Shown here one piece after another: positions 16,306 through 63,353 of a DNA stretch of 64,000 bases (positions are counted from its first letter, which is position 1; each line of letters starts with the position of its first letter). Source of the stretch: a virus. Lineage: Duplodnaviria > Caudoviricetes. The stretch is from the IMG/VR virus record IMGVR_UViG_3300035698_013504, positions 128,001 to 192,000 of that record. One strand, 5' to 3'. The position numbers and the translations under genes are program-made. The notes under the pieces are model-generated. The model was not told the DNA's origin and did not search any database. It saw only the letters and a list, made by a program, of their open reading frames with translations.

Positions 16306-16316
16306 GGAGAAGCAAG

Positions 16317-17006: not shown

Positions 17007-17026
17007 TCGTTACCGGCACGTATCAT

Positions 17027-17066: not shown

Positions 17067-17079
17067 ACACGGAGTTGTT

Positions 17080-18218: not shown

Positions 18219-18230
18219 GGCAAAAGTCTG

Positions 18231-18260
18231 TTGACATTTAAGCGACAGAGCTGGTAAACT
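18231..18260 (+). promoter_or_regulatory. sigma70-type promoter
   Basis: TTGACA, 18 nt spacer, TG-n-TAAACT. Confidence 0.7.
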
Positions 18261-18292
18261 TGTCACAACATAACTTGGAAGTGGGCTATCGC

Positions 18293-22870: not shown

Positions 22871-22890
22871 CCCTGTTCGTAATTTACCCA

Positions 22891-22931
22891 AAGCCGCGCG
22901 GTCCCTATAAACGGGTCGCGCGGTTTTCTTT
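22891..22931 (+). terminator. Rho-independent terminator
   Basis: AAGCCGCGCGG...CGCGCGGTTTT stem followed by T-tract. Confidence 0.7.
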
Positions 22932-22943
22932 GGAGATATACGT

Positions 22944-33984: not shown

Positions 33985-34608
33985 ATGCCGAGCGGAGGCC
34001 CGGAACACTATTTTGGCGAAGAGCGTGAGACGACGTACGGTAAGGGGATAGCTGGTGGAACCCGAATACCCTCAGCCGAGCCCGGCACTGGCGGCGGATC
34101 TTTAGGGTTTGACCCGCACGTGGCCCAGCCTTATACGGTGGTTGATCTTAGTGGCGACGCCCCAAAGGTCGTTGCTACAGTTGACCGCACTACACCAGAG
34201 CCCCAACCAGAGCCTCAACCAGAGGCCGAGGCCGAAGACGCCCAGGAGGGGGTGTCGAGACAGTCTACAGCGGATGACCACGCCACATCTGTTGCTCCGC
34301 CCCCTCCGCCCCCTTTACCGGCTGTTCCCGCGGCGCAACCAGAGCCTGCGGCCGCACCTAAACAGGCGGAGAAGGTGACGTTTCTTGACTTCGGGGAACT
34401 CACGGTTCCGTACGACTCCGTCTTTATTGATGGCATGTGTCTGGTTTTGGTGTATGATAGGGGGAACGAGGTTACGTTTGATCCTCCGGTAAACGACGAA
34501 CCCCTTAGTCTGCGTTACGCCGGTCGAAATTTTAAGGCGTATTCGAGTGGTGTCCGCTTTGTGGAGCCTGGGACCAGTAGAGTTTTTACGGTCCTGTTGA
34601 TAGAATGA
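33985..34608 (+). CDS. Hypothetical protein with Pro/Glu-rich linker
   Basis: SD AGGAG; PEPQPEPQPE repeat. Confidence 0.6.
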   Translation: MPSGGPEHYFGEERETTYGKGIAGGTRIPSAEPGTGGGSLGFDPHVAQPYTVVDLSGDAPKVVATVDRTTPEPQPEPQPEAEAEDAQEGVSRQSTADDHATSVAPPPPPPLPAVPAAQPEPAAAPKQAEKVTFLDFGELTVPYDSVFIDGMCLVLVYDRGNEVTFDPPVNDEPLSLRYAGRNFKAYSSGVRFVEPGTSRVFTVLLIE

Positions 34609-34820
34609 GTATTGACAAAGATGGATCGACTCACGTCGGAGTAACTCCCTGCGAGGGTTGCGGTGAGCCCTCTACCGGCCGTGACGATAAAGGCCGGGCT
34701 CTTTGTGCCCGTTGTTTGACGCTTGAAAAATCCAGTGGCGTACTGGATGGACCCGCAGGTTCTTTGCGAACTGCGGGAGAAGACCTGGCCGTAAAACACA
34801 CCGAGGGAAGTAATGGCTGA
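34605..34820 (+). CDS. Small Zn-finger protein
   Basis: CEGC...CARC; ATGA coupling. Confidence 0.5.
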   Translation: MSIDKDGSTHVGVTPCEGCGEPSTGRDDKGRALCARCLTLEKSSGVLDGPAGSLRTAGEDLAVKHTEGSNG

Positions 34821-36657
34821 TAATTTCCCGCTGTTTTCAAACCAGTCGGGGGGCGAAACAAACGCGATTGATCGCTACTCCGCTGAGTTCGGTAACCCCT
34901 TTTACCACTACGCCACGAGCGCCATGCCCAACAAGCTCGATGACGTATTCAAGCTTGCCGAGCACATGTGGCTGACCGACGCTACCTTCAAACGCGGCAT
35001 GCAACGCGTTGTACGCTACTTCTTGACCTCTGTAGAGCTCAAGGATGTGGAAGCGGACGAGAAGGAGAAGTGGGACGAGTTCCTCTATGAAACCCTTGAC
35101 ATAACCTCGCAGGCTGCGCTCGTGGGCGATGACTTTGTGGGGTATGGCAACAGCTTTACCTCGATCTATGTACCCTTCCGCCGCTACCTTGTCTGCCCCA
35201 AGTGTTACGTTCACCGGCCAATTGAGCGCGTGGACTACAAGTTCACCAACTTCAAGTTCATGGCGACGTGCCCGGCGTGTCAGTACAAGGGCGCGCTGAA
35301 GCGTATTGATCGTAGGACGGCTGAACAGGACAAGCTCAAGGTAATCAGATGGCCGGTGCAAGAGATGCGCCTACTGCACAACCCGATCAGCCAAGCGACC
35401 TGTTACGAGTGGCAGGTAAGCGCCACGATGAAGAAGAACATCGAGGCTGGCACAAATCACTACATCAATACGACACCTTGGGAGATCATTGATACGGTCA
35501 GGCGGAAGAAGACTCTGTTCCGCTTCAACCCGAAGATCATCTATCATATGAAAGAGGACTCCCTTGCTGGCGTACCTCTTTACGGCTGGGGCCTACCGCC
35601 TATCCTGTCGAGCTTTAAGCAGGCATGGGTGCGCCAGATCCTCCGAAGGTACAACGAAGCCATTGCGATGGACTATATCGTTCCCTTCCGCCTGCTGACA
35701 CCCGGCAAAGGATCACCAGCCGCCGACCCCCTTATTCACCAGGACCTTGGTAATTTCGTCAATAACATCATGGGGCAGATCAAGCAGCACCGCAAGGATC
35801 CCACCTCGTGGCACGTTGTTCCTCACCCGGTTGACTACATGGCGATCGGCGGAGAAGCCAAGGACTTGGCCCCGACAGAACTCATCCAGTTTGAGGACGA
35901 CGAGCTCCTCAACGGTCTTGGTATCCCCGCAGAGCTTTACCGCGGTACGATCCAGGTGCAAGCGGCCCCTACAGCCCTGCGCCTGTTTGAACGTACATGG
36001 ACCTACTACGTCAGCGCGCAGAACGCATGGTTGCGCTGGTTGATCGATAGTTGTGCAGACCTTCTTAGCTGGGAACGTGTTGGCGGCAGATGGCAGCCGG
36101 TCACCCTTGCCGAGGACATGGAGAAGAAGCAGGTGCAGCTCCAGCTCGCCGCAGGTATGCAGATTTCACGCGGTACGGCCTATGCCCCGTTTGGCATCGA
36201 CTACCGCGAGGAGATCCGCCGGATGTTCCAGGAAGAGCGCTTCTACCAAGACGAACAGAAGCGGTTCGAAGAGGAACAGGGCCAGCGACAGGAGATGGAG
36301 CAGCAGATGTCCACAGGAGGCCAACAGGGCGGCATGGGCGGCGGTATGATGCCACCTGGCGGCGGTATGATGCCGGGTATGCCTGCTGGCGCACCGGGAT
36401 CGATGGGCGCACCCATGGGTGGAGGGGGAGGCGCAGTCACACCGGAAGCGCTTTCAGCCCAGGCAGAAGAGCTCGCATACCAAATGCTCGCCATGCCGTA
36501 TGAGTCTCGGCGGTCTCAGCTCTCCGATATCAAGGGGAGCAATCGTGAGCTACACGCCCTCACGATGGCTAAAATGCAGGAGATACGAGATCAGGCCGCA
36601 AGTGAGGGCAAGCAAGAGAAGTTACAGCAGCTTCAAGGTCAAGGCGCGGTTATGTAA
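34813..36657 (+). CDS. Putative phage portal protein
   Basis: 614 aa; portal-like GDDFVGYGNSF, LYGWGLPPI and DELLNGLGIP segments; Gln/Gly/Met-rich C-terminus; internal CPKC/CPAC insertion. Confidence 0.6.
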   Translation: MADNFPLFSNQSGGETNAIDRYSAEFGNPFYHYATSAMPNKLDDVFKLAEHMWLTDATFKRGMQRVVRYFLTSVELKDVEADEKEKWDEFLYETLDITSQAALVGDDFVGYGNSFTSIYVPFRRYLVCPKCYVHRPIERVDYKFTNFKFMATCPACQYKGALKRIDRRTAEQDKLKVIRWPVQEMRLLHNPISQATCYEWQVSATMKKNIEAGTNHYINTTPWEIIDTVRRKKTLFRFNPKIIYHMKEDSLAGVPLYGWGLPPILSSFKQAWVRQILRRYNEAIAMDYIVPFRLLTPGKGSPAADPLIHQDLGNFVNNIMGQIKQHRKDPTSWHVVPHPVDYMAIGGEAKDLAPTELIQFEDDELLNGLGIPAELYRGTIQVQAAPTALRLFERTWTYYVSAQNAWLRWLIDSCADLLSWERVGGRWQPVTLAEDMEKKQVQLQLAAGMQISRGTAYAPFGIDYREEIRRMFQEERFYQDEQKRFEEEQGQRQEMEQQMSTGGQQGGMGGGMMPPGGGMMPGMPAGAPGSMGAPMGGGGGAVTPEALSAQAEELAYQMLAMPYESRRSQLSDIKGSNRELHALTMAKMQEIRDQAASEGKQEKLQQLQGQGAVM

Positions 36658-36670
36658 GGCACTCGGTACG

Positions 36671-37774
36671 ATGCGTACTGATAGGAAAGTTATGGCACAA
36701 GACCTCCAAGAATGTCGGCAGGACATATCTGAACTCCGCGAGATATCTACACGGGTAGCCTCTGAGATGCGCCTGCGTAAAGAAGCTGAAGAGAGGTTTC
36801 GCGCCCTCTTTGAGCAGGGCGTGCACGCGATGGCTCTTATCAGCGTACCCGAGCTGAGGTTTGTCGAAGTGAACAGCACGGTGTCGACGCTGCTGGGGTA
36901 CACGAAGGACGAGCTACTGGGGCTGACCCTTTTCGACATTGAGGGTAATGAGACACCAGACGAGATCAAGGAGCACGCTAACTCTGTTGTCCGCATGGGC
37001 GGCCGTATTCGCGACTTCCAGACAAAGCATATACGCTCTGACGGCGACATTCGCGACGTACATGTTCGCGTGCGGTGTACCGAGTTAGGCGGGGTAGCGT
37101 ACCTCCAGGCAAGCTGGAAGGATATCACGGACATCAAGCGATCGTTGGGCAGACAGGAATTGGCGCTTGAGGTTCTAAAGGTGCTCAACAACTCACCTCC
37201 AACCAATGGTGCCATCCCAAAGCTCACGTTGCTTGTTAAGGACTTCATGAGCTTTGAGGCTGTGGGGGTCAGGCTGGTTAGTGGGGACGATTATCCATAT
37301 TATGCACACATCGGCTTCCCGCCAAAGTTCATTACGAAGGAGGACAGCTTATGCGCGATAGATTCTGACGGTAAGGTAGTTCGCGCGGAGGATGGCAGCG
37401 TCATGTTAGAATGCGTTTGTGGCGCTGTTATATCCGGCGATACGAAACAGCACTGCTGTGAATACTTCACAGTTACGGGTAGCTTTTTCACGAACAGCAC
37501 GACCGATCTTATTGAGAGCGGCGGCATACCTACATTGACGTGCGCGCGTAATACGTGTCACGAACACGGGTATGAGTCTGTTGCCGTTATCCCGCTTCGT
37601 CATGCTGGTGGTATCATAGGCGCGTTGCATATCGCGGATACACGCAGAGACCTGTTTAACCTCGAACTCATATTGTTCCTTGAGTCCGTGGCGAACTCAG
37701 TGGGGATTGCTTTCGCGAGAGATCAGTACATCTTGCGACTCCAAGCACAGTTAGACGCAATAAAGGGTGCGTAG
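36671..37774 (+). CDS. PAS + GAF sensor protein without output domain
   Basis: EERFRALFEQ..VN..LLGYTKDELLG PAS/PAC; GAF with CVCG, CC, CARNTC, ESVAVIPL..IIGALHIAD. Confidence 0.75.
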   Translation: MRTDRKVMAQDLQECRQDISELREISTRVASEMRLRKEAEERFRALFEQGVHAMALISVPELRFVEVNSTVSTLLGYTKDELLGLTLFDIEGNETPDEIKEHANSVVRMGGRIRDFQTKHIRSDGDIRDVHVRVRCTELGGVAYLQASWKDITDIKRSLGRQELALEVLKVLNNSPPTNGAIPKLTLLVKDFMSFEAVGVRLVSGDDYPYYAHIGFPPKFITKEDSLCAIDSDGKVVRAEDGSVMLECVCGAVISGDTKQHCCEYFTVTGSFFTNSTTDLIESGGIPTLTCARNTCHEHGYESVAVIPLRHAGGIIGALHIADTRRDLFNLELILFLESVANSVGIAFARDQYILRLQAQLDAIKGA

Positions 37775-37776
37775 TT

Positions 37777-38160
37777 ATGGCGCGAAGTACCGCAGCGGGC
37801 TCGGCCGACAATCTTCTAGAAACTTGGTTTAAGCGGGTTCTCGATCGCGTGGAGAAGCTGAGTGAGAAGTTCGGGGACCTCCGAACGGAGATCGCCGTGT
37901 TGAAGACTAAGATGGGTATCATGTGCGCGTGTATCGCACTGGTTATCAGTGTGATCTTTTCTGGTGTTACTCGCTACGTCGTAGTATCCTCTAACGATGC
38001 CCGGCTCACCGCGCAGCGTGTAGAGATAGGTAGGCTTCGCAAGTTGATCAATGCCGCGCCCTCACCGCACGCGGTCACACCGGCGGATGTCCGCCTTGAG
38101 ATAGAGAAGCTGAAAGAGATGATTATAGAGATGAGCAAGAAGAAGGCTGCAACTCCGTAG
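37777..38160 (+). CDS. Small single-pass membrane protein with coiled coil (holin/XhlA-like?)
   Basis: Coiled coil followed by hydrophobic MGIMCACIALVISVIFSGV. Confidence 0.45.
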   Translation: MARSTAAGSADNLLETWFKRVLDRVEKLSEKFGDLRTEIAVLKTKMGIMCACIALVISVIFSGVTRYVVVSSNDARLTAQRVEIGRLRKLINAAPSPHAVTPADVRLEIEKLKEMIIEMSKKKAATP

Positions 38161-38195
38161 CGGTGCGGACACCACGTACTTAGGAGGTCGACGGC

Positions 38196-39110
38196 ATGGC
38201 TCACAACGGTAACCGCTGGGTATGCGCCCAGATCATGACGACGTCGGTTTGTCCCGCCTCTTGCTTCTACTGCGCCTATCCCGACGGCTGGCACAAGGAG
38301 CACCCCGGCCGTATGACAGAGGAGACGTTCGAGAAAGTCCTTGAGGGCCTACAACAGGTCGGAGACTTCTCGGGCGGTAAAGTCTGTCTCTACCTGATGA
38401 ACGAGCCCCTCGCTGACCCCGACATCTGCTGCCGTATCGAGCGGGTCCAGGCGGTATTCCCTAAGACCCTCATCGAGATCAACACGAACGCTATGCTTCT
38501 CAATGAGGAGCGGGGCCAGCAGTTTGCTGAGGTGATGAGTAAGCAGCGCCACCAGATCCACATCCACCTGTCGGGCTACGACGAAGAGACCAGCCAGCGT
38601 GCGATGGGTCTCCCCTTCCAAGTACGGTACGACAACGTCGACCGCTTCCTAGGCCTTGTAGGTGAGTACAAACTCCACGTAGAGATCGAGGGCTTCTATC
38701 GTGCTGAGCCGAACAGTGGCCCTATTCTTTTTGACTACCACCCGTGGCGGGCGAAGATGAAAGAACTCAGCCGAGGCCGGGCCAAGAGTTATGACCTCTA
38801 CAGGTTCCACGACCGGGCGGGCACGATCAAGAGACATGGCAATGTGGACTTTGGTCTGCGTCGTGACTGTGACTGCGACAAAAATGGGCCATGTAGACGC
38901 GTACACGAATGGATACACACTGATTGGGAGGGCAGGTTGAGGATTTGTTGTAACGATTATCACCGGGAAATTACACTACCTCTCGTCAAAGACTTGCCGA
39001 ATCTCAAAACATACCTGGAGGGCCACGAGTGGCAATTCGTACAAGGGTTATCACAGGGGACAGACGCGCCACTAGACTTCATATGTATGCGATGTCGGGG
39101 CAATAGGTGA
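38196..39110 (+). CDS. Radical SAM protein with SPASM/twitch domain
   Basis: CPASCFYC; MNEPLAD; INTN; C...G....CCND...CMRC. Confidence 0.85.
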   Translation: MAHNGNRWVCAQIMTTSVCPASCFYCAYPDGWHKEHPGRMTEETFEKVLEGLQQVGDFSGGKVCLYLMNEPLADPDICCRIERVQAVFPKTLIEINTNAMLLNEERGQQFAEVMSKQRHQIHIHLSGYDEETSQRAMGLPFQVRYDNVDRFLGLVGEYKLHVEIEGFYRAEPNSGPILFDYHPWRAKMKELSRGRAKSYDLYRFHDRAGTIKRHGNVDFGLRRDCDCDKNGPCRRVHEWIHTDWEGRLRICCNDYHREITLPLVKDLPNLKTYLEGHEWQFVQGLSQGTDAPLDFICMRCRGNR

Positions 39111-39111
39111 A

Positions 39112-39861
39112 ATGAAAGCAAATGAACTAACCGGTCGCCGCTTTGGGGAGCTAACCGTTAAAAAACGGCTGGGCCCTCTACGTAAAGATACAGGCGATCG
39201 GCATGTTTATTGGGGATGTAGTTGTTCGTGTGGTAACACCGCGGCTGTAGCAAGTACACAGCTTACAAGCGGTAAGACTAAGAGCTGCGGCTGTTTGCGG
39301 GGCAGGAGTCCCAGCTCTGTTGCAGCATTCGCGCGAGCCACGAAGGATTTGACCGGGAAGGTCTTCGGTCGTCTTACAGTCATTAGACAAGCCCCGACGC
39401 GATGTAAGGGTAAGTCACGCTGGATCTGTAAGTGCTCGTGCGGTGAAGATAGGGACATACTTGGTCACAGCTTGGTAAGCGGCCACACAAAGAGTTGTGG
39501 GTGCTTGAGTGTGGAATTAAGGCGTGAGCGTAAAGGATCAAAGCACGGGTCTTGGAAGGGTGGCCGCAGCTTACAGCATGGTTACGTAATGATTCACCAG
39601 CCGGAACACCCTAACGCGAAAATCTCAGGGTATGTGCGCGAACACGCCCTTGTGATGTCGGAACATCTTGGTCGCCCTCTGCTATCCAACGAGAAGGTTC
39701 ACCACAAGAACGGCATCAGAGATGATAATCGACTTTGCAATCTCGAGCTTTGGACAGTATCGCACCCAACAGGCCAGCGAGTGGAGGACATTACAGCGTT
39801 CGCTATCAGACACCTGAAGCAATATGTGCCGAAGGCGTTAGCAACGCGCTACAGAAAATAG
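39112..39861 (+). CDS. Free-standing HNH homing endonuclease
   Basis: Two G..FG.LTV...C.CSCG...SG.TKSCGCL repeats; EH.LVM, VHHKNGIRDDNR.CNLELW. Confidence 0.85.
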   Translation: MKANELTGRRFGELTVKKRLGPLRKDTGDRHVYWGCSCSCGNTAAVASTQLTSGKTKSCGCLRGRSPSSVAAFARATKDLTGKVFGRLTVIRQAPTRCKGKSRWICKCSCGEDRDILGHSLVSGHTKSCGCLSVELRRERKGSKHGSWKGGRSLQHGYVMIHQPEHPNAKISGYVREHALVMSEHLGRPLLSNEKVHHKNGIRDDNRLCNLELWTVSHPTGQRVEDITAFAIRHLKQYVPKALATRYRK

Positions 39862-39871
39862 GAGAATACCG

Positions 39872-40243
39872 ATGGCGGGTTACCCAACAGAACTTGAAAG
39901 ACAGATTCAGCTACTTTGTGGCGGCAAGGCTCCGGCAGGTGAAGTCACGTCGCAGGACATCAAGATTCCCAAGATGACCGAGCGTATCCTGCACATGGCG
40001 CAGGAAGAGGCACAGTTGCACGGCATGCGGGAGCCGGGGTCTCTGCACGCCCTCAAAGAGAGTATACGACAGACACTGAATCAGCCACTCCGCAGCGTTT
40101 CTAACGATATTGACGAAGGTAAGCCGATGAACGCTGTGCGGATTGCCGTAGGCGAAGACTTGCTCGGCAAGCTGGCCCTCTACATGTACGCGACGATCAA
40201 CTTCGCAGCACAAGAGCCGCCGAACGACTGCGGGGTGTGTTAA
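39872..40243 (+). CDS. Hypothetical protein
   Basis: SD AGGAG. Confidence 0.55.
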   Translation: MAGYPTELERQIQLLCGGKAPAGEVTSQDIKIPKMTERILHMAQEEAQLHGMREPGSLHALKESIRQTLNQPLRSVSNDIDEGKPMNAVRIAVGEDLLGKLALYMYATINFAAQEPPNDCGVC

Positions 40244-40244
40244 A

Positions 40245-41174
40245 ATGCTACGAGGACCTTGCGGCGTCATGTTTCACCACTTCACCGGGGCAGGTCATAC
40301 TCATGGGCAGGGAGCTATTAGCTCTCGTACCTTCTCTGCATTCCTTGATAATATGGGCGATCGTATCATCGGTGCCACTAAATGGCACGACCTAGCTCTT
40401 AAAGGCGACCTGAACGATCAGGTGTGTCTTACGTTCGATGATGGGCTACAGTCACAGTACGCCATAGCCCGGTACGCCATGGTGGAGCGAAAGCTCACGG
40501 CTTTCTTCTTTATCTACACCGCCCCCATGTCTGGCCGCCCGGAGCGTATGGAGATCTACCGGAAATTTAGGTCGACGCACTTCTATCAGATTCAAGACTT
40601 CTACGATCAGTTCATCACGCGTGTGGCGAAGATCTTCCCGGATATGATGACACGTGAGAGTATGTTAGGGGCGCGTTACTACCTACGCGATTACACTTTC
40701 TACTCTGACGCTGATCGTGTCTTCCGTTATATCAGGGATATTCTCCTTGGTGCCGACAAGTATGTAGAGCTCATGGATACGTGGATTGTCTCTCAGGTAG
40801 GGGATATCGACGCTTACATGCACCACCTTTGGATGGGCGCTGACGAGATCAAGACGTTGTCTAACGAGGGGCATGTGATCGGTATGCACGCGCACACGCA
40901 CCCTACGACGTTCAGTGACTTCCAGCAACACTCCGAGTACTACGCGAACAGGGAGATCCTGCGCTCGGTGACGGGCGTGACTCCTACGGTCGTGTCCTAC
41001 CCTTCAGACCTTTTCAATTACCGCACGCGGGTTACGATGCAGGAGCTGGGGGTTACCCTCGGTTTCCGCGCAAAGCCGCAGCATAGTGGCACTGATCTGT
41101 TTCAGATGCCTAGAGAGGATTGCGCCACAGTATGCACATTACAGTCTTCACCAGCAACCAACCTCGGCACCTAG
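40245..41174 (+). CDS. Polysaccharide (N-acetyl sugar) deacetylase, NodB-like
   Basis: LTFDDG, TAFFFI, GMHAHTHP, SYP motifs. Confidence 0.85.
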   Translation: MLRGPCGVMFHHFTGAGHTHGQGAISSRTFSAFLDNMGDRIIGATKWHDLALKGDLNDQVCLTFDDGLQSQYAIARYAMVERKLTAFFFIYTAPMSGRPERMEIYRKFRSTHFYQIQDFYDQFITRVAKIFPDMMTRESMLGARYYLRDYTFYSDADRVFRYIRDILLGADKYVELMDTWIVSQVGDIDAYMHHLWMGADEIKTLSNEGHVIGMHAHTHPTTFSDFQQHSEYYANREILRSVTGVTPTVVSYPSDLFNYRTRVTMQELGVTLGFRAKPQHSGTDLFQMPREDCATVCTLQSSPATNLGT

Positions 41175-41959
41175 CACTGCTCTACTGCCTGCGAGAACAC
41201 TGCGACAGTATGACGGTAGTGATGGAGTGTAACACTATCTTTCCAGGACGTACTAAGGACTTCTTTCGCAAGTCGGATGCTATGCGGGCGTACTTTCAGC
41301 GCGTGATGATAGCGGAGAAGAGGGTATTCGGTCACTACCCTAAGGTGACACCGGACGACACGGATATTATCCCGCTGCGTATGGGCGATCTTACGCAGAT
41401 ACCTCTTTCGATTTTAGCTCCTATCCTCAGAGGTTCCGACCACTTTGTTGTGTTTGGGTCGTCGTACATCCGAGGGCCCCTATTCAACTTTTTGCCGGAC
41501 CGTACGATCAACATTCACATGGGTATTTCGCCGTATTACCGTGGGAGCTCATGTAATTTCTGGGCTATGTACGATAAGAACCCTCAGTTTGTAGGCGCCA
41601 CAATTCATTACCTTAGTGAGAAGCTAGACGGCGGCAATATCCTTCTCCATGCTATACCGCTGGCGCAACCTGTCGACCCCTTCACGTATGGCATGCTTTC
41701 CGTTAGAGCCGCCATTGAGGGGCTTGTCACTGAGGTCATAGCTCCGGGTATACGGCTTGACGAAGGCGTACCACAAGACAGCCTGCCGGATACGATTCGG
41801 TACAGCGTTAATAAGGACTTCACCGACGCGGTTGCCGACGAGTATCTTGAGCGTGCGGTGTCGCAGGAGGAGATGTTCGAGGCGGTGTGTCACCTACCGG
41901 ATAGGTTTGCTGATGTACCGCCGTACGTTGCAACAGAATGGGAAGAAGGCAAAGATTGA
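41132..41959 (+). CDS. N-formyltransferase (10-formyl-THF dependent)
   Basis: INIHMGISPYYRGS, GATIHYL...LDGG. Confidence 0.85.
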   Translation: MHITVFTSNQPRHLALLYCLREHCDSMTVVMECNTIFPGRTKDFFRKSDAMRAYFQRVMIAEKRVFGHYPKVTPDDTDIIPLRMGDLTQIPLSILAPILRGSDHFVVFGSSYIRGPLFNFLPDRTINIHMGISPYYRGSSCNFWAMYDKNPQFVGATIHYLSEKLDGGNILLHAIPLAQPVDPFTYGMLSVRAAIEGLVTEVIAPGIRLDEGVPQDSLPDTIRYSVNKDFTDAVADEYLERAVSQEEMFEAVCHLPDRFADVPPYVATEWEEGKD

Positions 41960-42717
41960 TTACCGCGGTTATCCCAATCAGACAGACGGAGGAGCATAGT
42001 CGGTCATGGGACCGGCTGGAGATAGGTATCAGCTCCCTCAAGAGGTTCGTACCCTCTGTGACGAGTATCTTCGTTGTTGACAGTAACTCTGATGAGCCGT
42101 GGGCTACCGAGCTTGTGGACATCTGTGAGCGTCTTGACGTTCACCTGTGGCGTATTGACGACCTAGATCATTGGAACAAGTGCAAGACGATGAATGCGGC
42201 GATGTATCAAGCTGTGACGCCGTACGTCATGCAGTTCGACGTGGACATGGTCATTACGACAGACGAGGTGGAGAAGGCGATTCAGGCGCAGCTTGAACCC
42301 AATATCTTCCTCACCTTCCTCATCCATAACTTATGCCACCAGTTGACGTGTGACAGGGTTATCGAAGAGGATGCCGATAAGCTCCACGAGTGGATGAAGT
42401 CACACAGCCTACTACGAGCTGGTGGCCGATCTACCGGCGGTATCCAGATCTTTGACCGTACTTGGTTCCTTAAGGTACGTGGTTACGACGAGGAGTACGC
42501 CTTGTGGGGCCGTGAGGACGATGATATGGTGAAGAGGGCTAAGTTGGACGGCCTGACCCATCTGCACGACCGTACGCTCGTGTTTCACATCGGCCACAAG
42601 AACCCCATCAAGACGAAGGATCAGATGAAGGCCAACGAGATCAGGTACAAGACGACAGAGACAGTCGTACGTAACGACGAAGAGTGGGGATCTGTCCCCA
42701 TCCGTAAACTAGTATAG
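41938..42717 (+). CDS. GT2/GT7-like glycosyltransferase
   Basis: NKCKTMN, QFDVD (DxD), GYDEEYALWGREDDD. Confidence 0.85.
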   Translation: MGRRQRLITAVIPIRQTEEHSRSWDRLEIGISSLKRFVPSVTSIFVVDSNSDEPWATELVDICERLDVHLWRIDDLDHWNKCKTMNAAMYQAVTPYVMQFDVDMVITTDEVEKAIQAQLEPNIFLTFLIHNLCHQLTCDRVIEEDADKLHEWMKSHSLLRAGGRSTGGIQIFDRTWFLKVRGYDEEYALWGREDDDMVKRAKLDGLTHLHDRTLVFHIGHKNPIKTKDQMKANEIRYKTTETVVRNDEEWGSVPIRKLV

Positions 42718-42742
42718 ACACCTTACGATAAGGAGAAGGACA

Positions 42743-43759
42743 GTGTTGAACCCCCCGATCAACCACAACGAGCGCGTTGTGCACCAGGGTGGCATGTATG
42801 ACGTTTGGAAATCAAGACGGAAGCCCGGGTACGACGAGTACCGTGCCGCGTGGGAGAACAACCCGGCCCAGCAGATCGTGGGTAAGTTCCCAATCCACCT
42901 CGACTGCGAGGTGACGAGCCGGTGTAACCTCGCGTGCCCGTTCTGTATGCGGACGAGTATGTTCCGCGAGGGGCATACCGCTAACTTCTGGCTTGGCGAC
43001 ATGAAGCCGGAGGTCTACTACAAGTGTATTGGTGAGGGAGAGACGAAGGGTCTCAAGTCCGTCAAGTATAACTTCCTCGGCGAGTCCCTTCTCATCGGGT
43101 CTGAGCGTCTCTATGACTACATCCACTACGCTACTGCGCTGGATGGTATCCAGGAGACCCTACTCAACACCAACGCCTGCCTGCTTGACCACGACATGAC
43201 GACGGCGCTGTTGGAGTCTCGTCTGGACAAGCTGATCATCTCGATGGACTCCCCCGACCCCGAGACGTATGAGAGTCTACGAGTTGGCGCCTCGTTCGAT
43301 AACGTGGTGGGTAACGTCCGTCACTTCATCGAGCAGCGTAACCGCGGTAAGTTCTTCGGTACGCTCGTACGTCTGCAGATGACGGTGGTCCCCGAGAACA
43401 AGGACCATGTCGCAGACTTCGTCGAGATGTGGAAGCCGTATGCCGACGAGGTTACAGCGAACGTCGCTTGTGCCGTCATCGAGAACGAGACGAAGGAACA
43501 GTTTATCAACGACCCCAACCGGCTGATGTCTTGCCCGGCGCCGTGGCAGCGCTTGATCGTGTTGGCTGACGGCCGAGTTGTACCGTGCTGTGGTGACCAT
43601 CACCACGTTTACATCCTCGGTGACGCGCTGGCCGACAACTTGTCGGATATCTGGGTCGGACGTAAGATGAAAGAGTTGCGCAAGGCGATCTCAACAGGTA
43701 GTATCGACGAGATGGCTGTCTGTAAGATCTGTAGTGGTAGGAGAATGCGACCAGTATGA
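42743..43759 (+). CDS. Radical SAM protein with SPASM domain
   Basis: CNLACPFC; GESLL; NTN; CPAPW...DGRVVPCC...CKIC. Confidence 0.88.
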   Translation: MLNPPINHNERVVHQGGMYDVWKSRRKPGYDEYRAAWENNPAQQIVGKFPIHLDCEVTSRCNLACPFCMRTSMFREGHTANFWLGDMKPEVYYKCIGEGETKGLKSVKYNFLGESLLIGSERLYDYIHYATALDGIQETLLNTNACLLDHDMTTALLESRLDKLIISMDSPDPETYESLRVGASFDNVVGNVRHFIEQRNRGKFFGTLVRLQMTVVPENKDHVADFVEMWKPYADEVTANVACAVIENETKEQFINDPNRLMSCPAPWQRLIVLADGRVVPCCGDHHHVYILGDALADNLSDIWVGRKMKELRKAISTGSIDEMAVCKICSGRRMRPV

Positions 43760-45198
43760 TTAAGACCTTGGCTGTAATCCCAGCGCGGGGAGGCTCCCAG
43801 AGAGTCCCCCGCAAGAACCTACGGATGCTTGGAGGTGTACCTCTAATCATGCACACGATTGAGTGTGCGAAGAGTGTGGACGGCATCGAGGATATCGTTG
43901 TGTCCACGTCCGACCCTGAGATCGCCAGTGTCGCTAAGGCGGCCGGTGTGCTCGCGGTTACACGTCCCGTAGAGCTTAGGGGCCCTGACGTATGGGCCTT
44001 TGCTGTCACAAAGGATGCAGTCAGTCAGACTGAGACGTTGACGGGTAAGACGTACACGCAGGTTGTGCATCTTCAGCCCACTTCCCCGTTCCGTAAGCCG
44101 GAGCTGATCAAAGCGGCACTTAGCTTGGCCGACGAGTTCAGTCCAAACATGGTGACGTCAGTGGCTCCGGTCCCGAAGTATCACCATCCCGCCATGTTGC
44201 TCTCAGATACGCAGAAGGGTGCGGTCCCGTGGATGAAAAGGTGGAAGCCAATCCCGGACGGTATTGAAGAACGGGTCAAGTGGTACGGCAACTATCCGGG
44301 GTTCTATCCTACGGGTAGTGTAGCTGTCTTGCAGCTTCCGTGGCTCATGACTTGTGATATAGGTCAGTTGACGAACATCTCGTGGCCAATAGGTACGAAG
44401 GCACGCTTTGTCGTTGAGGAAGACGAGATCGCTAATCTCGACATTGACACGGAGTTGGACTTCAGGTTCGCCGAGTTCATTAATGGCCTCGAGAGTGAGA
44501 GGGAGACGTCACACGTCGACCTGCACCCCTACGAGGGCCACCTCGACTACCTGACGGGTAAGCGTGTGGCTGTTGTGGGTAACTCGTCAGCTATGATTGA
44601 CACCGACTACGGTGAGCGTATTGACGGTTACGATGAGGTTGTACGCATGAACATCGCCGCGACCCGGGGATACGAGAAGGACGTTGGTACCAAGATGTCT
44701 ATCTGGGTTACCTGCTTGCCTCGGCGTGAGGCGTGGAAGGCGAACCAGCTCCGAGCGAAGGGTATCCACAGTGTGTGGCTCAGCAACGTAGGCCCATCTA
44801 GGCAGCGCAACGTGCGGCTGCGTCAGTATAAGACGTTCCCGGTCTATTGGTATGATTACGACAAGACTCAGAAGATGCGGGATGAGTTCGGGCAGATTCT
44901 TACGAGCGGCGGTGTCGTTCTACATGCGATCCTTACCCACAGTGCCCCGAGCGAGGTATTCTTGACAGGGTTCACCTTCTTGCGTGAGTTTCATCAGAAG
45001 GGTACTCCTATAGCATATGCCGCCCGCCCAGAGCTTCGCTACGGTGACGGCCGGGGTGAGCATAAGAATATGGCCCGAGAATTGGAGATGGTGCGCGACA
45101 TGATCCGGAATGCCACAGGCACGAAGTTCATTGTTGCAGCGCATACGAACGAGGTACTAAACCTCGAAGGCGAGGATCATGTGGAGGTTCTGAAATGA
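43756..45198 (+). CDS. neuA: Fusion: acylneuraminate cytidylyltransferase (NeuA-like) + GT29 sialyltransferase-like domain
   Basis: IPARGGSQRVPRKN, LQPTSPFR, DIDTELDF; then sialylmotif L (VAVVGNS...IDGYDEVVRMN.A...GYEKDVGTK), S-like (TSG...EVFLTGF) and VS-like (H....E). Confidence 0.85.
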   Translation: MIKTLAVIPARGGSQRVPRKNLRMLGGVPLIMHTIECAKSVDGIEDIVVSTSDPEIASVAKAAGVLAVTRPVELRGPDVWAFAVTKDAVSQTETLTGKTYTQVVHLQPTSPFRKPELIKAALSLADEFSPNMVTSVAPVPKYHHPAMLLSDTQKGAVPWMKRWKPIPDGIEERVKWYGNYPGFYPTGSVAVLQLPWLMTCDIGQLTNISWPIGTKARFVVEEDEIANLDIDTELDFRFAEFINGLESERETSHVDLHPYEGHLDYLTGKRVAVVGNSSAMIDTDYGERIDGYDEVVRMNIAATRGYEKDVGTKMSIWVTCLPRREAWKANQLRAKGIHSVWLSNVGPSRQRNVRLRQYKTFPVYWYDYDKTQKMRDEFGQILTSGGVVLHAILTHSAPSEVFLTGFTFLREFHQKGTPIAYAARPELRYGDGRGEHKNMARELEMVRDMIRNATGTKFIVAAHTNEVLNLEGEDHVEVLK

Positions 45199-46241
45199 AC
45201 CACAAGGAATTCTTAGGCGTATCGACAGAGGCGCGCCCGTTTATCGTAGCTGAGGCCGGGCACAACCATGAGGGCGACATTGATGTTGCCCGCGAGATGA
45301 TCTACAAGGCAAAAGAGGGCGGAGCTGACGCCATCAAGTTTCAGACAATCATACCGGGTCGACTTGTCTCACCCAGCTTCCCGATAACCGCCGCGTACGC
45401 AGCTGAAATGGCAAGGGCTTCCGCATTCTCCCTTCCGTTTGACAACTTCATTGCCTTAAAGGAAGAGGCAGAGAAGGTCGGCATCCTCTTCTTCTCGACG
45501 CCTTTTGATGTGCCGAGTGCAAAGATGTTGGTTAGTCTTGGCATCCCGGCTTTCAAGATAGGTTCGGGGCAGATCGACCTTTGGCCCATGGTAGATATCG
45601 TCGCGAGGGCGTGTAGGCCGGTGATCCTTTCTACTGGCGCGTCAACAATTGCGGATGTACGTACGGCCATTGGACGTATTCGTGCTGGGTGGGGACGTAT
45701 GAATTGGCAAGGGCAGCTCGTGTTGCTTAACTGCACCTCGATGTATCCCACACCGTCCGAGCACGTCCATCTTAGACGTATCCAGGAGCTACATAGGGTT
45801 ACGCGCCTTGTCGGCTTCTCGGACCACACCGAGGGTATACAGGCCTCTGTACTGGCTGCAGTGATGTTTGACACCTTCATGATTGAAAAGCATTTTACGT
45901 TGGACAAGAACTTCTCCGACTTCTGCGACCATAAGATCTCCGCGACGGCCGAGGACCTTAAAGATATGATCCGGCTGATCATGGAAGGTAAGGCGATGAT
46001 TGGGTCGGAGACCCGCCCGGTACTTGACGACGAGAACCAAAGCCTTATCCGCCACTCCGCGTGTGCGGCCAGGGCGCTGCCCGAGGGGCATACCTTGAAC
46101 CGGGATGACATTGTGTGGCTTCGGCCTCAGCATGGCGTTAAGCCCGGTGAAGAGCGGCAGATCTTCGGTAAGAACCTTAAGGTAGCTAAGGAAGACGGGG
46201 AAACCATCAAACTGGATGACGTATGTAGTTCAGTCGAATAA
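45195..46241 (+). CDS. neuB: N-acetylneuraminate/nonulosonate synthase (NeuB family) with C-terminal SAF domain
   Basis: AEAGHNHEGD, KFQT, KIGSG, ILSTG, GFSDHT, IEKHFT. Confidence 0.9.
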   Translation: MNHKEFLGVSTEARPFIVAEAGHNHEGDIDVAREMIYKAKEGGADAIKFQTIIPGRLVSPSFPITAAYAAEMARASAFSLPFDNFIALKEEAEKVGILFFSTPFDVPSAKMLVSLGIPAFKIGSGQIDLWPMVDIVARACRPVILSTGASTIADVRTAIGRIRAGWGRMNWQGQLVLLNCTSMYPTPSEHVHLRRIQELHRVTRLVGFSDHTEGIQASVLAAVMFDTFMIEKHFTLDKNFSDFCDHKISATAEDLKDMIRLIMEGKAMIGSETRPVLDDENQSLIRHSACAARALPEGHTLNRDDIVWLRPQHGVKPGEERQIFGKNLKVAKEDGETIKLDDVCSSVE

Positions 46242-46255
46242 AGGAGACCGATGCA

Positions 46256-47875
46256 ATGCTGGAACCTTATGTACCCACCAAGAGAGATGTGCTCGATGTT
46301 AACAGAGCATGCCAGGCCCGCTGCGATTTTTGTTACTACTTCCATAGCGGCGGCTCTGGGTCTTTCGGACATGACCCGAATTGGGTTATGCCTCTTCAAG
46401 GCGCTATCAACAAGTTGAACCGTATGAAAGAGATCGGGTGCGAGTTTGCCGACTTTACAGGCGGTGAGCCCACTCTCTATAAGGCGATGCCAGCGCTGCT
46501 TGAGCATTGCGCGGCCATCGATCTGACACCTTGTATTATCACCAACGGGTTAGCATCCCATGACAAGTTTGGGTCGTACCTGGAAGCCAACCCGAACACG
46601 CGGTTCCTCTTGTCGCTTCACGGCGCGTCTGGAGTAACCCACGACGCGGCGATGGGCGTTGACGGCGCTTTTGCGACCATGCTTTCACTTATGAGGTTCC
46701 TACTGGACCGTGGTGTGTTCTTTCGTACCAACACGGTGATCACACGCAGGAACTACAAAGAGCTTGAGGATATTGCGAGTATTGCTCGTTGCGCCGGGGC
46801 TCGAATGTCCAACTTCATCTTCTTTCAGCCCTTTCACGGTTGGGATAAGAATCAAAACGACGACGTGCAAGTAGCCCCCGACCTTGTGGGGCCGTACCTT
46901 AGCCGAGCTGTGCATGAGCAGCGCGCCCACAACTACTGGGTACAGATACGGTACTTCCCCTACTGTTGCATCGATGAGGACTGCTGGCAGAACATATGCG
47001 GTCAGACTCAGGTTAGGCTGGACCCCTATGAATGGCTGTATAATCCCCCTTCGATTGATATGGAGTTCTCTCTTCGTAAGTGTCGCGAGAAGGCCCGTGA
47101 CCGTTACGGTAAGGGTAATGATGTCTGTGACGCTTGTCAGATACGCGCTGTCTGTGGCGGCAACTACGAGACACGTACGAACATGTATGGTACGGCCGGG
47201 TTACGGGCTGTGACGGACAGATATACGGAGAACGTCTTTGAGTTCCGCGATGATCTCAAGACGGACATCATCATTCCCTCCTACAAGGCGGCGGCTCTGC
47301 CGGGCATCATAGATGAGGTGGTGCGCACGGCCGTACAGCCCTATCGTATTATCATCCAAGGAGATGAGACACACGCGACCATTAACCGGCAGAGGGGCCT
47401 TGATGCTTCAGACGCCGATTGTGTTATCATGGTAGATGACGACATCCGAGATCTACCGGAAGGGTGGAACCGAGCCTTTGTTGAAATCCTTCGAGCAAAC
47501 CCACAAGTCTGTGCCGTGTCCGCACGGCTGCTTGATCGTGATGGTCGGGCCGCCCCTAATTCAGCCGACAATTTCGATCTGTCCGAATCTCTCGTACGCG
47601 TGCCTCTCATACCTACTGCCCTCTGTGCCTTTAGACGACCTAGCAAGGCTCGCTTTGATCCACGGTATCGTGGAAGCGGGTTCGAAGACTCCGACTTCTT
47701 CTTGCAGCTAGCGGGTGAGTATAACCCCTGTAACGAGATCGCGATTACAAACGATATCCGAGTTATGCACCTACATGAGAAGAAGGAGCAAAGCCGATTT
47801 CATGACCACAATAAATCTCTCTTTGAAGCCAAGTGGGGTCCCATTCGTAAAATCATGCGAGGACAAGATGCCTAA
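46256..47875 (+). CDS. Radical SAM enzyme fused to C-terminal GT2 glycosyltransferase
   Basis: CQARCDFC, TGGEPTL, ITNG, C-terminal Cys cluster; then IIIPSY, MVDDD, FDPRY.GSGFEDSD. Confidence 0.85.
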   Translation: MLEPYVPTKRDVLDVNRACQARCDFCYYFHSGGSGSFGHDPNWVMPLQGAINKLNRMKEIGCEFADFTGGEPTLYKAMPALLEHCAAIDLTPCIITNGLASHDKFGSYLEANPNTRFLLSLHGASGVTHDAAMGVDGAFATMLSLMRFLLDRGVFFRTNTVITRRNYKELEDIASIARCAGARMSNFIFFQPFHGWDKNQNDDVQVAPDLVGPYLSRAVHEQRAHNYWVQIRYFPYCCIDEDCWQNICGQTQVRLDPYEWLYNPPSIDMEFSLRKCREKARDRYGKGNDVCDACQIRAVCGGNYETRTNMYGTAGLRAVTDRYTENVFEFRDDLKTDIIIPSYKAAALPGIIDEVVRTAVQPYRIIIQGDETHATINRQRGLDASDADCVIMVDDDIRDLPEGWNRAFVEILRANPQVCAVSARLLDRDGRAAPNSADNFDLSESLVRVPLIPTALCAFRRPSKARFDPRYRGSGFEDSDFFLQLAGEYNPCNEIAITNDIRVMHLHEKKEQSRFHDHNKSLFEAKWGPIRKIMRGQDA

Positions 47876-48236
47876 GTACCTCTACCGCAAGATACCGTTT
47901 CATGCATACCAGGTAGACGTAGACACGGATGTTACGAGTTCCCTCGGTGACGACGTCGCTCACCGGGGGGACTGGATTCTCCAGTACAGGGCTACAGGTT
48001 TCATGCTTGTCTTGAACGACGAGGAGTTTCAGGCTCACGTGACCCCCAACCCTAAGTCAGTTGATGATAAGGGGTCCGAGTCCGTACGAGCCGCCATTAC
48101 AGAGGAGTTCAAGAGGGGCGTTGCCGAGCTACGGACTTTTATGGATCCAGTACGCGCCGCAATAACCACGTCACAGGTACCAACCAATGAGAAACATACG
48201 GTCGCAGATATTCCGCGGTCAGCGGTGGCGGGTTGA
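47868..48236 (+). CDS. Hypothetical protein
   Basis: ATG overlapping the previous stop region; GDWIL motif. Confidence 0.5.
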   Translation: MPKYLYRKIPFHAYQVDVDTDVTSSLGDDVAHRGDWILQYRATGFMLVLNDEEFQAHVTPNPKSVDDKGSESVRAAITEEFKRGVAELRTFMDPVRAAITTSQVPTNEKHTVADIPRSAVAG

Positions 48237-48465
48237 GCACGTAAAGAAGCTTAAAGGTGCTGACGGCGACATAGACGACCCGTCGACAACAGGTAAGGTC
48301 TTGCGCCTGAAAGAGGGCCTGCCACCCGTTAGGGAACTGGAGTGCGCGATTCACGAGGGTCTCCACGGGTGCTTCTGGGACCTCGACGAGGCGGCTATCA
48401 CACAGTCCGCTACGGACCTGGCCAGGTGGCTATGGCGACTTGGCTACAGGAAGATACATCAGTAA
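48187..48465 (+). CDS. Small HExxH (metalloprotease-like) protein
   Basis: IHEGLHG. Confidence 0.5.
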   Translation: MRNIRSQIFRGQRWRVEHVKKLKGADGDIDDPSTTGKVLRLKEGLPPVRELECAIHEGLHGCFWDLDEAAITQSATDLARWLWRLGYRKIHQ

Positions 48466-48488
48466 CGTGCTACAGAAAGGACAACACG

Positions 48489-49319
48489 ATGTCTCACCAG
48501 CTTGAAGAAACAGTTGACTATGAGGACCTCAACCGTGTTGCCATGGTTGTCACGTGTAAGGGTAGACTCACCCACCTGAAGGAAACGATCGAGTCCAAGA
48601 TGGATGTAATGGGCGTCGACCACGTCGTTATCGTGGATTACGATGACCCGAGTGACTCTTTCGGCTGGGCCTGCGAGTTGGATGATCCCCGTATCACGGC
48701 GATTAAGGTGGAGGACCGCGAGTTCTACCACCATGGTAAGGCTCGCAACATTGGGCTTCGAGTAGCCATTGAACGTCTGAAGGCGAACGCCATACTGCTT
48801 ACTGATGCAGATGTACGGTTCCACCCGGCCTTTGTGGATCACTGTACGCGCGTGCTGGTCGGCCACCCCCACGAGATATGCGTGATCGGTAACTGCAAGA
48901 ACAAGTTCAGCGGTGGCGCAGGCACCGTATTCTCCTCCGCGCGCCTTGTAGCTGAGGTCCACGGTAATCAGGAGCTGCTTCAAGAGGCTTGGGGCGCCGA
49001 CGACACAGATCTGAAACGTCGTATGGAGCATCACGCTCACGAGACACGCGGTTACCCCCATCCCTGCCCTGAGTTCAACGGCGAGCTTCTGGACGTGATT
49101 GGACATGGCTCAGGTGATCGTACACGTCACTACGTGGTCAAAGCCATGGGTGAAGGCGAACGCCGTAACACCAAGATTGCCCTTGATTGGCAAAAGGAGC
49201 ACGGCTGGATAGCTAACCCCGACGGGTGGGGCCAAGCGATCGGACACATCCTTCTGCCGGGTCATGATGTGCAGAGATACGACAGCCGCTCGTCCACATT
49301 CCTGACTGAATACGCATAG
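48489..49319 (+). CDS. GT2/GT7-like glycosyltransferase
   Basis: IVDYD, GKARNIG, LTDAD, WGADDTD. Confidence 0.8.
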   Translation: MSHQLEETVDYEDLNRVAMVVTCKGRLTHLKETIESKMDVMGVDHVVIVDYDDPSDSFGWACELDDPRITAIKVEDREFYHHGKARNIGLRVAIERLKANAILLTDADVRFHPAFVDHCTRVLVGHPHEICVIGNCKNKFSGGAGTVFSSARLVAEVHGNQELLQEAWGADDTDLKRRMEHHAHETRGYPHPCPEFNGELLDVIGHGSGDRTRHYVVKAMGEGERRNTKIALDWQKEHGWIANPDGWGQAIGHILLPGHDVQRYDSRSSTFLTEYA

Positions 49320-49394
49320 GGCAAAGCGTTACTATAAGGTGACACCCCGCCTCCTAATATTTTGCGTTGGTTTCTTTTGTGGAGAGGATTCACC

Positions 49395-49646
49395 ATGGGC
49401 ATGTTCGACAGCTTGTATGTATGTTGTCCCGCTTGCGGGGCGCAGAACGAGTTCCAGTCTAAGGCTGGAGCTTGCACGCTTCATAACTACAGCGTGTCCG
49501 ACGTCCCCCCGTCGATAGCCGGGGACCTCAACGGCGACTATCAGGCCTGCGAAGGTCCGGGCTGCGACAAGATTATCACCCTTCGGGTTCAGACCATGCT
49601 TAGCGTTATGGTCTCCGACAGTCCGCCCGACGATGACGAAGACTAG
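49395..49646 (+). CDS. Small Cys-containing hypothetical protein
   Basis: MGMFD..CPACG..EFQSK..C pattern; SD GAGG. Confidence 0.55.
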   Translation: MGMFDSLYVCCPACGAQNEFQSKAGACTLHNYSVSDVPPSIAGDLNGDYQACEGPGCDKIITLRVQTMLSVMVSDSPPDDDED

Positions 49647-63329: not shown

Positions 63330-63353
63330 CCCGTTACGCATAGGAGGCATCGC

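Follow-up and report, generated by a model that had tools for sequence, protein, structure and literature searches.

Sialic-acid-like sugars, the nonulosonic acids, cap cell surfaces in animals as well as in bacteria, and viruses that bind or cleave them are known. No tailed phage has been shown to coat its own particle with such a sugar. Here we describe a gene cluster of a salt-lake phage (Caudoviricetes) that is predicted to make, activate and transfer a nonulosonic acid. The phage is represented by the single virus record IMGVR_UViG_3300035698_013504, which has a length of 200,903 bp, carries direct terminal repeats and is rated 100% complete. The window analysed comprises positions 128001-192000 of this record (64,000 nt), and the cluster is located at window positions 38196-49319. 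Positions refer to the window unless given as genome positions.

The closest described kinds of system are bacterial nonulosonate glycosylation and phage virion glycosylation. Regarding the former, the SugarBase preprint (10.64898/2026.04.20.719630) reports nonulosonates activated with cytidine monophosphate (CMP) and bearing one free and one formylated amine in Candidatus Kuenenia, together with a legionaminic-type cluster in which a deacetylase and a formyltransferase adjoin neuB. It concludes that the deacetyl and formyl edits occur at the level of the nucleotide sugar. Like the clusters of the Ca. Kuenenia stuttgartiensis type, the phage has a NeuB gene with Formyl_trans_N and CE4 genes beside it, plus NeuA. 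In contrast to them it lacks dehydratase, aminotransferase, GFO/IDH/MocA and acetyltransferase genes, adds three radical S-adenosylmethionine (SAM) enzymes and GT2 glycosyltransferases, and fuses NeuA to a transferase. The layout of NeuB with formyltransferase and CE4 is also found in metagenome-assembled genomes of Planctomycetota, Thermodesulfobacteriota, Chloroflexota and Alphaproteobacteria.

Bacterial Maf proteins place nonulosonates on serines and threonines of flagellin. In these systems (Campylobacter, Helicobacter, Aeromonas, Magnetospirillum) the CMP-nonulosonate is transferred to Ser/Thr of a structural protein by a soluble cytoplasmic enzyme before assembly, and the phage resembles them in encoding a protein with tandem PF01973 domains. 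It differs in not involving a flagellin, in that virion proteins with runs of almost nothing but serine are the candidate acceptors, and in that the Maf-like gene lies ~150 kb away from the cluster.

Among phages, capsid and tail proteins of the mycobacteriophages Che8, Corndog and Myrna are glycosylated by phage-encoded glycosyltransferases whose genes adjoin structural genes (Freeman et al. 2023, as relayed in PMC12363180). The salt-lake phage likewise has glycosyltransferase genes within its structural block, which holds for a cassette at genome positions 106894-111800 but not for the nonulosonate cluster. As far as the relayed account goes, the mycobacteriophages use host nucleotide sugars and simple glycosyltransferases, and it reports no nonulosonate pathway, GT29 domain, radical SAM enzyme or poly-serine; the salt-lake phage, in turn, is uncultured, and its system is predicted from sequence. 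Particles of an archaeal pleomorphic virus from a hypersaline habitat (PV6; PMC6137143) carry N-formylated legionaminic acid, placed on an N-linked glycan that is made entirely by the host. In contrast, the salt-lake phage, which probably infects a bacterium, would encode the late steps itself. Finally, the 'capsular polysaccharide modification' clusters of jumbo phages are, like the cluster described here, variable islands of sugar-nucleotide and glycosyltransferase genes (Iyer et al. 2021, PMC7824862). That study contains none of the terms sialic, nonulosonic, NeuB and radical SAM, and no description of phage NeuB, nonulosonate or GT29 modules was found in the searchable literature. Compared with these systems, the locus probably represents an intact, phage-owned late-stage nonulosonate pathway.

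The gene cluster and its NeuA-GT29 fusion

The cluster is tightly packed and co-directional, with no minus-strand genes of note. It contains three radical SAM enzymes, a CE4 deacetylase-like protein, a formyltransferase, NeuB, a NeuA-GT29 fusion, and one clear and two weak GT2 glycosyltransferases (Table 1). A preceding sequence-only reading had named the same domains with three GT2-like ones among them; all others were recovered, while only one of the three GT2-like domains exceeds the Pfam threshold. The two sub-threshold ones are weak, yet have DxD-like motifs. The genes had also been called mostly translationally coupled, a fair description since their ends abut or overlap (1-nt gaps, 4-nt ATGA overlaps). 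The central claim, that NeuB of the module synthesises a nonulosonic acid, which NeuA activates with CMP and the GT29-like domain transfers, gains support from domains, motifs and fold. In our view it is clearly probable that the cluster makes and transfers a nonulosonate.

Activation and transfer are predicted to be united in one chain. The N-terminal part contains a complete cytidylyltransferase domain (PF02348) with an N-terminal nucleotide-binding loop of the PARGGS-K/R type (IPARGGSQRVPRKN), and residues 4-242 align with positions 5-222 of the CMP-NeuAc synthetase of N. meningitidis, which has 228 residues (1eyr, E 2.5e-19). The C-terminal half matches Pfam Glyco_transf_29 with 52-54 bits. 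In an alignment with 38 relatives, which all match PF00777, its sialylmotifs L and S (RVAVVGNSSAMIDTDYGERIDGYDEVVRMN and TSGGVVLHAILTHSAPSEVFLTGFTF) line up with the consensus. An AlphaFold2 model of this domain, built on 39 relatives, reaches a pLDDT of 82.8. The top 40 Foldseek matches of the model in the PDB are without exception GT29 or GT42 sialyltransferases (TM 0.5-0.57), starting with ST6GalNAc2 (E 5e-8), ST3Gal1, ST8Sia3 and ST6Gal1 and continuing with bacterial GT42 enzymes. The model suggests a sialyltransferase fold, a variant of GT-A.

A set of 23 GT29 sequences from bacteria, without stem or disulfides, has been reported (Petit et al. 2018, PMC5811610), in a paper that nowhere uses the word 'phage'. 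Like these proteins, the phage domain has neither a transmembrane stem nor the conserved disulfide cysteines. With animal GT29 enzymes (ST6GalNAc2, 6apl; ST3Gal1, 2wnb) it shares the sialylmotifs L and S and, according to the model, the GT-A variant fold. It is distinguished from both by its compact size of ~225 residues, the fusion to its own CMP-sugar synthetase, alterations in motifs III and VS, and by being encoded in a phage. Its relatives are distant, the best one among 1.84 billion representatives scoring 80 bits in an exhaustive HMMER search, and many of them are compact (~200-250 residues) or arranged in tandem arrays. No other protein with a NeuA+GT29 architecture was found among 5.8 billion proteins. 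One-chain fusions of a CMP-sugar synthetase and a sialyltransferase have been engineered in the past for sialoside synthesis.

The cluster might also be a decaying fragment of a host polysaccharide locus that is functionless in the phage. Early pathway steps are indeed missing, a homing endonuclease sits inside the cluster, and the distant relatives Arash and D181 have neither NeuA nor Maf-like genes. However, all open reading frames (ORFs) are intact and tightly coupled, the catalytic motifs are kept, and the G+C content of 0.53-0.55 is the same as in the remaining genome. The NeuB and GT29 parts are at most 40-43% identical to anything known, which argues against a recent capture. Moreover, identical short contigs tile window positions 34000-51000 in four salt-lake metagenome runs (2017-2019) without indels. 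Hence neither the cluster nor the NeuA-GT29 fusion is an assembly artefact, and the sequence is unchanged in runs from three years. Because of the intact and coupled frames, the native composition, the deep divergence and this stability over years, decay is a most improbable explanation. As for the endonuclease, an HNH enzyme, we take it for a mobile insert and not for an enzyme of the pathway.

Probable donor sugar and precursor supply

The phage NeuB is a full-length member of its family, with both the catalytic barrel and the SAF-like C-terminal part, and covers positions 1-239 of 241 in PF03102 and 1-329 of 329 in TIGR03569. It shares 56 invariant alignment columns with 16 relatives, and its best homologues among the 5.8 billion proteins are 40-43% identical. 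In the metagenome contexts of four of its nearest relatives, NeuB is in each case followed by a formyltransferase (~230 residues) and a CE4 'polysaccharide deacetylase' (~300 residues); the same contexts also hold NeuA, a GFO/IDH/MocA protein, a DegT aminotransferase, a short-chain dehydrogenase/reductase and often an Asn-synthase-like gene. In the phage, NeuB, formyltransferase and CE4 are all found within 6 kb. For a broader comparison a NeuB tree was calculated with 83 bacterial loci, including 80 further loci from named genomes that were scanned for neighbours. The phage NeuB falls within a group of 24 rows that holds all NeuBs linked to formyltransferase and CE4. This adjacency occurs in 9 of the 23 bacterial loci grouping with the phage protein and in none of the 60 others (split support 100/99).

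A profile of the four NeuB-linked formyltransferases matches residues 5-180 of the phage enzyme with 39.5 bits (E 4e-13) and surpasses the general Pfam model. The phage CE4 and the NeuB-linked CE4s have in common an unusual spacing of ~135-145 residues between TFDD and HxHTH (HAHTH in the phage). The CE4 enzyme is predicted to remove N-acetyl or N-formyl from a nonulosonate precursor. Based on the bacterial NeuB neighbours and the SugarBase preprint, we assign CE4 and formyltransferase by analogy to the biosynthesis of the sugar itself and not to a later decoration of the glycan. An action of the pair on a glycan-bound N-acetylhexosamine, in the manner of NodC/NodB/NodA, was also considered and is less likely, as the same pair adjoins bacterial NeuB and the preprint places the edits at the nucleotide-sugar level. 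The two enzymes may run a formylate-then-deformylate cycle as in ArnA/ArnD. That the sugar is of a legionaminic type with formyl and free amine groups seems moderately likely from these genes.

The phage seemingly holds the late half of a legionaminic-type pathway only. The sequence-only reading had noted that NeuC epimerase and pseudaminic or legionaminic acid (Pse/Leg) precursor genes are missing in the window and had proposed a precursor derived from the host. The first point extends to the complete genome, in which no match to PF01370 (SDR/Epimerase dehydratase), PF01041 (DegT aminotransferase) or PF02350 (Epimerase_2, NeuC/LegG-type) was found. The second is supported thereby: since the phage has no early-step genes, the six-carbon precursor would come from the host.

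Acceptor candidates and the radical SAM enzymes

We propose the following course of events. The host would supply a 2,4-diamino-2,4,6-trideoxyhexose-type or similar six-carbon precursor. Judging from the gene content, NeuB would condense it with phosphoenolpyruvate, and CE4 and formyltransferase would edit the N-acyl groups, leading to a legionaminic-type nonulosonate with N-formyl and/or free amine. According to its domains, the fusion protein would make the CMP-sugar with its NeuA half and transfer it directly, in the cytoplasm, with its GT29-type domain. With close to even chances, the sugar would end up on virion proteins of the phage itself that bear long poly-serine tracts. These tracts may be primed by a GT2/GT9-like cassette in the structural module in combination with the GT2 enzymes of the cluster, and direct addition of the nonulosonate to serine may be the task of a separate Maf-like enzyme. 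The three radical SAM enzymes would introduce additional changes, be it in the sugar, in the glycan or in the acceptor protein.

Long serine runs, consisting of S6-8 stretches with W, D, N or Y in between and extending up to ~80 residues, are present in at least six proteins encoded at genome positions 66-112 kb. The respective genes are located downstream of the capsid gene, and one of the proteins is homologous to Arash gp236, annotated as 'structural protein'. The cassette mentioned above lies inside the structural module and encodes a GT2, a methyltransferase (Methyltransf_24), a GT9-like and a GT2-like protein. It ends directly before a gene for a 174-residue protein with poly-serine at both ends (genome 111816-112340). 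The GT9-like protein matches Pfam Glyco_transf_9 with 46 bits; its best NCBIfam match is the Aah/TibC serine O-heptosyltransferase (TIGR04414) with 34 bits against a cut-off of 200, so that its kinship to BAHT (Aah/TibC) is at most putative. The Maf-like protein has no sequence match in the PDB, and its relatives (66% and 55% identity) are encoded on short metagenome contigs of 2-5 kb, beside a DUF7352 gene. Considering poly-serine tracts, glycosyltransferase cassette and Maf-like gene together, the virion appears as the most coherent target, whereby the link is circumstantial.

Several findings weigh against this reading. With respect to the transferase, the place of sialylmotif III shows A-Y instead of H-Y and that of motif VS shows HKNMARE (H-x5-E) instead of H-x4-E; as the motifs are only partly kept, transferase activity is likely but less than certain. 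With respect to the sugar, NeuB scores below the NCBIfam equivalog cut-offs (NeuB_NnaB 255 bits vs 400, PseI 199 vs 340). Its classification as an equivalog of N-acetylneuraminic acid or pseudaminic acid synthases hence failed, and the substrate is not readable from these models. The exact place of the phage NeuB in the tree is unsure because of its long branch (1.57), and the phage CE4 matches a profile of NeuB-linked CE4s weakly (12.6 bits). Regarding the target, the cluster is separated from the poly-serine genes by 54-100 kb, and an AlphaFold model of the Maf-like protein from three sequences reached a pLDDT of 53, so that the fold could not be confirmed. The position next to the portal gene, which had been put forward in favour of virion glycosylation, carries little weight because the portal gene stands alone, with the remaining structural genes 50-100 kb off. 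Moreover, the support for the whole reading consists of sequence. For the statement as a whole, i.e. a working nonulosonate module of the phage including the virion proteins as target, we would put the chances slightly under even. The more detailed picture of a mucin-like virion coat, with serine brushes that are O-glycosylated in the cytoplasm and capped by an N-formylated or free-amine legionaminic-type sugar via the fused GT29 domain, a slimmed-down relative of animal sialyltransferases, and with an undescribed modification added by the radical SAM enzymes, is somewhat unlikely.

A further counterpoint comes from LR756508.1, an unannotated phage of 484 kb that holds NeuA, NeuB, genes for a GDP-mannose dehydratase and an epimerase, and five GT29-like genes in one island. 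It has no tracts coding for poly-serine, hence a nonulosonate module is not tied to poly-serine in general. This fits with the main rival explanation, a remodelling of the host surface, in which the CMP-sugar would be attached to the lipopolysaccharide core, capsule, S-layer or flagellin of the host in the course of infection, leading to receptor masking, a block of superinfection or a changed cell surface. Sugar islands of jumbo phages have been interpreted in this way (Iyer et al. 2021, PMC7824862). Such a function is also in line with the position of the cluster outside the structural module and with the dependence on a host precursor, given which a related sugar is probably displayed by the host already. 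On the other hand, none of the cluster enzymes has a transmembrane segment, and the cluster contains no flippase, polymerase, ligase or polyprenol-phosphate transferase. Soluble enzymes without export machinery point to direct glycosylation in the cytoplasm; in the absence of a membrane enzyme, the cluster could act only on cytoplasmic intermediates or cytoplasmic proteins. Moreover, host-surface remodelling leaves the poly-serine tracts and the glycosyltransferase cassette of the structural module unexplained. We regard it as rather unlikely.

Some DNA hypermodification pathways of phages make use of radical SAM enzymes and glycosyltransferases. The sugar might accordingly be placed on phage DNA bases, an option that the sequence-only reading had also raised, and serve the evasion of restriction. 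However, the complete genome has no thymidylate-synthase-like pyrimidine hydroxymethylase, which makes DNA modification unlikely. No DNA glycosyltransferase family was matched, and the kinds of transferase encountered (sialyltransferase, GT2, Maf) act on glycans or proteins. A glycan on the DNA is thus very improbable.

The three radical SAM proteins all carry the CxxxCxxC motif, at residues 19, 61 and 19, respectively. Among the 100 nearest ESM Atlas clusters of the first one, 83 carry SPASM/Radical_SAM, and those ranking highest among the matches listed are mostly viral. The nearest Atlas clusters of the second one are bacterial radical SAM/SPASM proteins of ~340 residues. The four bacterial NeuB contexts examined are free of radical SAM genes, hence the link of these enzymes to the sugar is one of position only, which adds to the points against our proposal. 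Functions might therefore be split: NeuB, NeuA-GT29, CE4 and formyltransferase would form a sugar module, while the radical SAM/SPASM enzymes would be protein maturases that cross-link or oxidise virion proteins, e.g. at W, Y, D or N between the serine runs. Their NCBIfam neighbours include WgkB, the cyclophane formers FxsB/YhhB, sactipeptide maturases and the anaerobic sulfatase maturase, all far below cut-offs. A fourth radical SAM/SPASM enzyme is encoded in the genome directly beside a virion protein with poly-serine and Cys repeats, and the mostly viral relatives of the first enzyme favour a split as well. However, the third enzyme is fused to a GT2-like domain, and the nearest solved relative of its radical SAM half, the cytosylglucuronate decarboxylase BlsE (7vob, E 2e-9), has a sugar acid as its substrate. 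Similar radical SAM-GT2 fusions are frequent among Atlas clusters and in bacteria, and the cluster has no evident precursor peptide. A split of functions is therefore improbable in our estimation.

Surroundings, relatives and significance

The plus strand holds nearly all genes of the phage genome, and the window starts with a replication module (helicases, primase, family A polymerase, UvsX-like recombinase). The portal-like gene is located 1.5 kb upstream of the cluster, with a PAS-GAF gene and a gene for a small membrane protein in between. It has no Pfam or PHROG match but is 31% identical to its counterpart in Vibrio phage D181 (tblastn, E 4e-78). In PHROGs, almost nothing was found for the portal, the poly-serine proteins or their neighbours. 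Besides the identical contigs, salt-lake contigs with ~80-90% identity match the portal-gene stretches 35613-35700 and 36142-36249, with differences mostly at every third base, indicating that a related strain co-occurs. Inside the cluster such variants are listed only near 49038-49197. RNA data sets are not among the sources listed for the stretch. The clear GT2/GT7-like protein shows a C-terminal WGREDDD stretch that aligns to beta-1,4-galactosyltransferase 1. The counts of a consensus scan for promoters and terminators were no higher than in shuffled controls.

Deposited relatives are all distant and comprise Salmonella phage Arash and the Vibrio phages D181, D148 and D69. They have in common with the salt-lake phage the portal (26-31% identity), a fused RNA polymerase beta/beta' protein, the capsid protein and few structural proteins, whereby the gene order is not kept. 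With few genes matched and their order not kept in Arash and D181, an insertion of the cluster into a conserved backbone could not be shown. In 50,697 GenBank phage records, neither the whole cluster nor the first radical SAM protein nor the GT2/7C protein had a match (megablast, tblastn), and NeuB had three distant matches only. Pattern scans of IMG/VR with the fusion protein, the portal, the first radical SAM protein and the radical SAM-GT2 protein yielded no relatives.

Some further observations concern the same genomes. Homing endonucleases are found inside the nonulosonate islands of both phages, HNH here and GIY-YIG directly after NeuB in LR756508.1. The homologue of the Arash major capsid protein (genome 63060-63985) is split over the overlapping frames 63060-63611 and 63608-63985, which could be due to a frameshift, a sequencing error or a programmed shift. 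Vibrio phage D181 (OZ196140.1) has a TCG/TCT repeat tract at 7641-7738, one frame of which would read as a run of serines. Outside the window, ~14 consecutive plus-strand ORFs of 123-172 residues each are located at genome positions 5023-11594, and a NADAR-domain protein (74 bits) is encoded at 22216-22971.

Table 1. Features of the nonulosonate cluster, its surroundings and the genes compared with it.
Feature	Position	Strand	Evidence and remarks
Portal-like gene (context, outside the pathway)	34813..36657	+	tblastn: Salmonella phage Arash gp204 'portal protein', 26% identity, E 1e-60
PAS-GAF protein without output domain	36671-37774	+	Pfam PAS_9/GAF; NCBIfam sensory_box 63 bits
Coiled-coil single-pass membrane protein, 127 residues	37777-38160	+	One hydrophobic segment; 2 bases after the PAS-GAF gene
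Radical SAM enzyme 1, small, Cys-rich SPASM-like tail	38196..39110	+	Pfam Radical_SAM 48 bits; CPASCFYC
HNH homing endonuclease, two Cys-rich repeats	39112..39861	+	Pfam HNH_3 30 bits
ORF of 123 residues, no known family	39872..40243	+	No match in Pfam, NCBIfam, PHROGs
CE4 (NodB-type) de-N-acylase	40245..41174	+	Pfam Polysacc_deac_1 52 bits
Sugar N-formyltransferase	41120..41959	+	Pfam Formyl_trans_N 31.5 bits; start uncertain, ATG at 41132
GT-A glycosyltransferase, GT2/GT7-like	41938..42717	+	Pfam Glyco_transf_7C 45 bits, Glyco_tranf_2_2 35 bits; no transmembrane segment
Radical SAM/SPASM enzyme 2	42743..43759	+	Pfam Radical_SAM 46 bits, SPASM 47 bits; CNLACPFC
Fusion of CMP-nonulosonate synthetase (NeuA, 1-242) and compact GT29-type sialyltransferase domain (~255-480), 480 residues	43756..45198	+	Pfam CTP_transf_3 75 bits, Glyco_transf_29 52 bits
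NeuB-family nonulosonic acid synthase	45195..46241	+	Pfam NeuB 200 bits
Radical SAM enzyme 3 fused to GT2-like domain	46256..47875	+	Pfam Radical_SAM 53 bits; GT2 20 bits, below threshold
Two small overlapping ORFs, no known family	47871-48236, 48187-48465	+	No matches in Pfam, NCBIfam, PHROGs
Weak GT2-like glycosyltransferase	48489..49319	+	Pfam GT2 17 bits, E 0.005, sub-threshold; NCBIfam rhamnosyltransferase 21 bits; DxD-like TDAD; longest ORF from 48342
ORF of 94 residues, CxxC pairs, zinc-ribbon-like, operon-closing	49362-49646		Weak DUF7577 match; just before hairpin 49681-49701
Terminator-like hairpin, may close the operon	49681..49701	+	Consensus scan; promoter-like site after it at 49751
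Maf-like protein, two tandem PF01973 domains	genome 16241-17674	-	69 bits vs cut-off 34.6
LR756508.1 (segment 308000-340000): NeuA	61-702 of segment		
LR756508.1: GT29-like (five genes)	946-1878, 14025-14657, 16756-18846 of segment		
LR756508.1: GDP-mannose dehydratase/epimerase	12030-14023 of segment		
LR756508.1: NeuB	14692-15591 of segment		
LR756508.1: GIY-YIG	15593-16738 of segment		

If a tailed phage indeed produces its own sialic-acid-like sugar, activates it and attaches it, this would represent a new kind of virus-encoded glycosylation. A sugar on the virion could alter its sticking to mucus, particles and cells, its resistance to protease and salt, and its recognition. The cluster would also be a source of new enzymes, namely a CMP-sugar synthetase/sialyltransferase that naturally consists of one chain, enzymes for the late steps towards rare formylated or free-amine nonulosonates, and three radical SAM enzymes. 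Such a module should be of clear interest for glycobiologists and phage biologists. Moreover, phages would join the few groups outside the eukaryotes that have GT29 enzymes, a point of relevance for the origin of this family.

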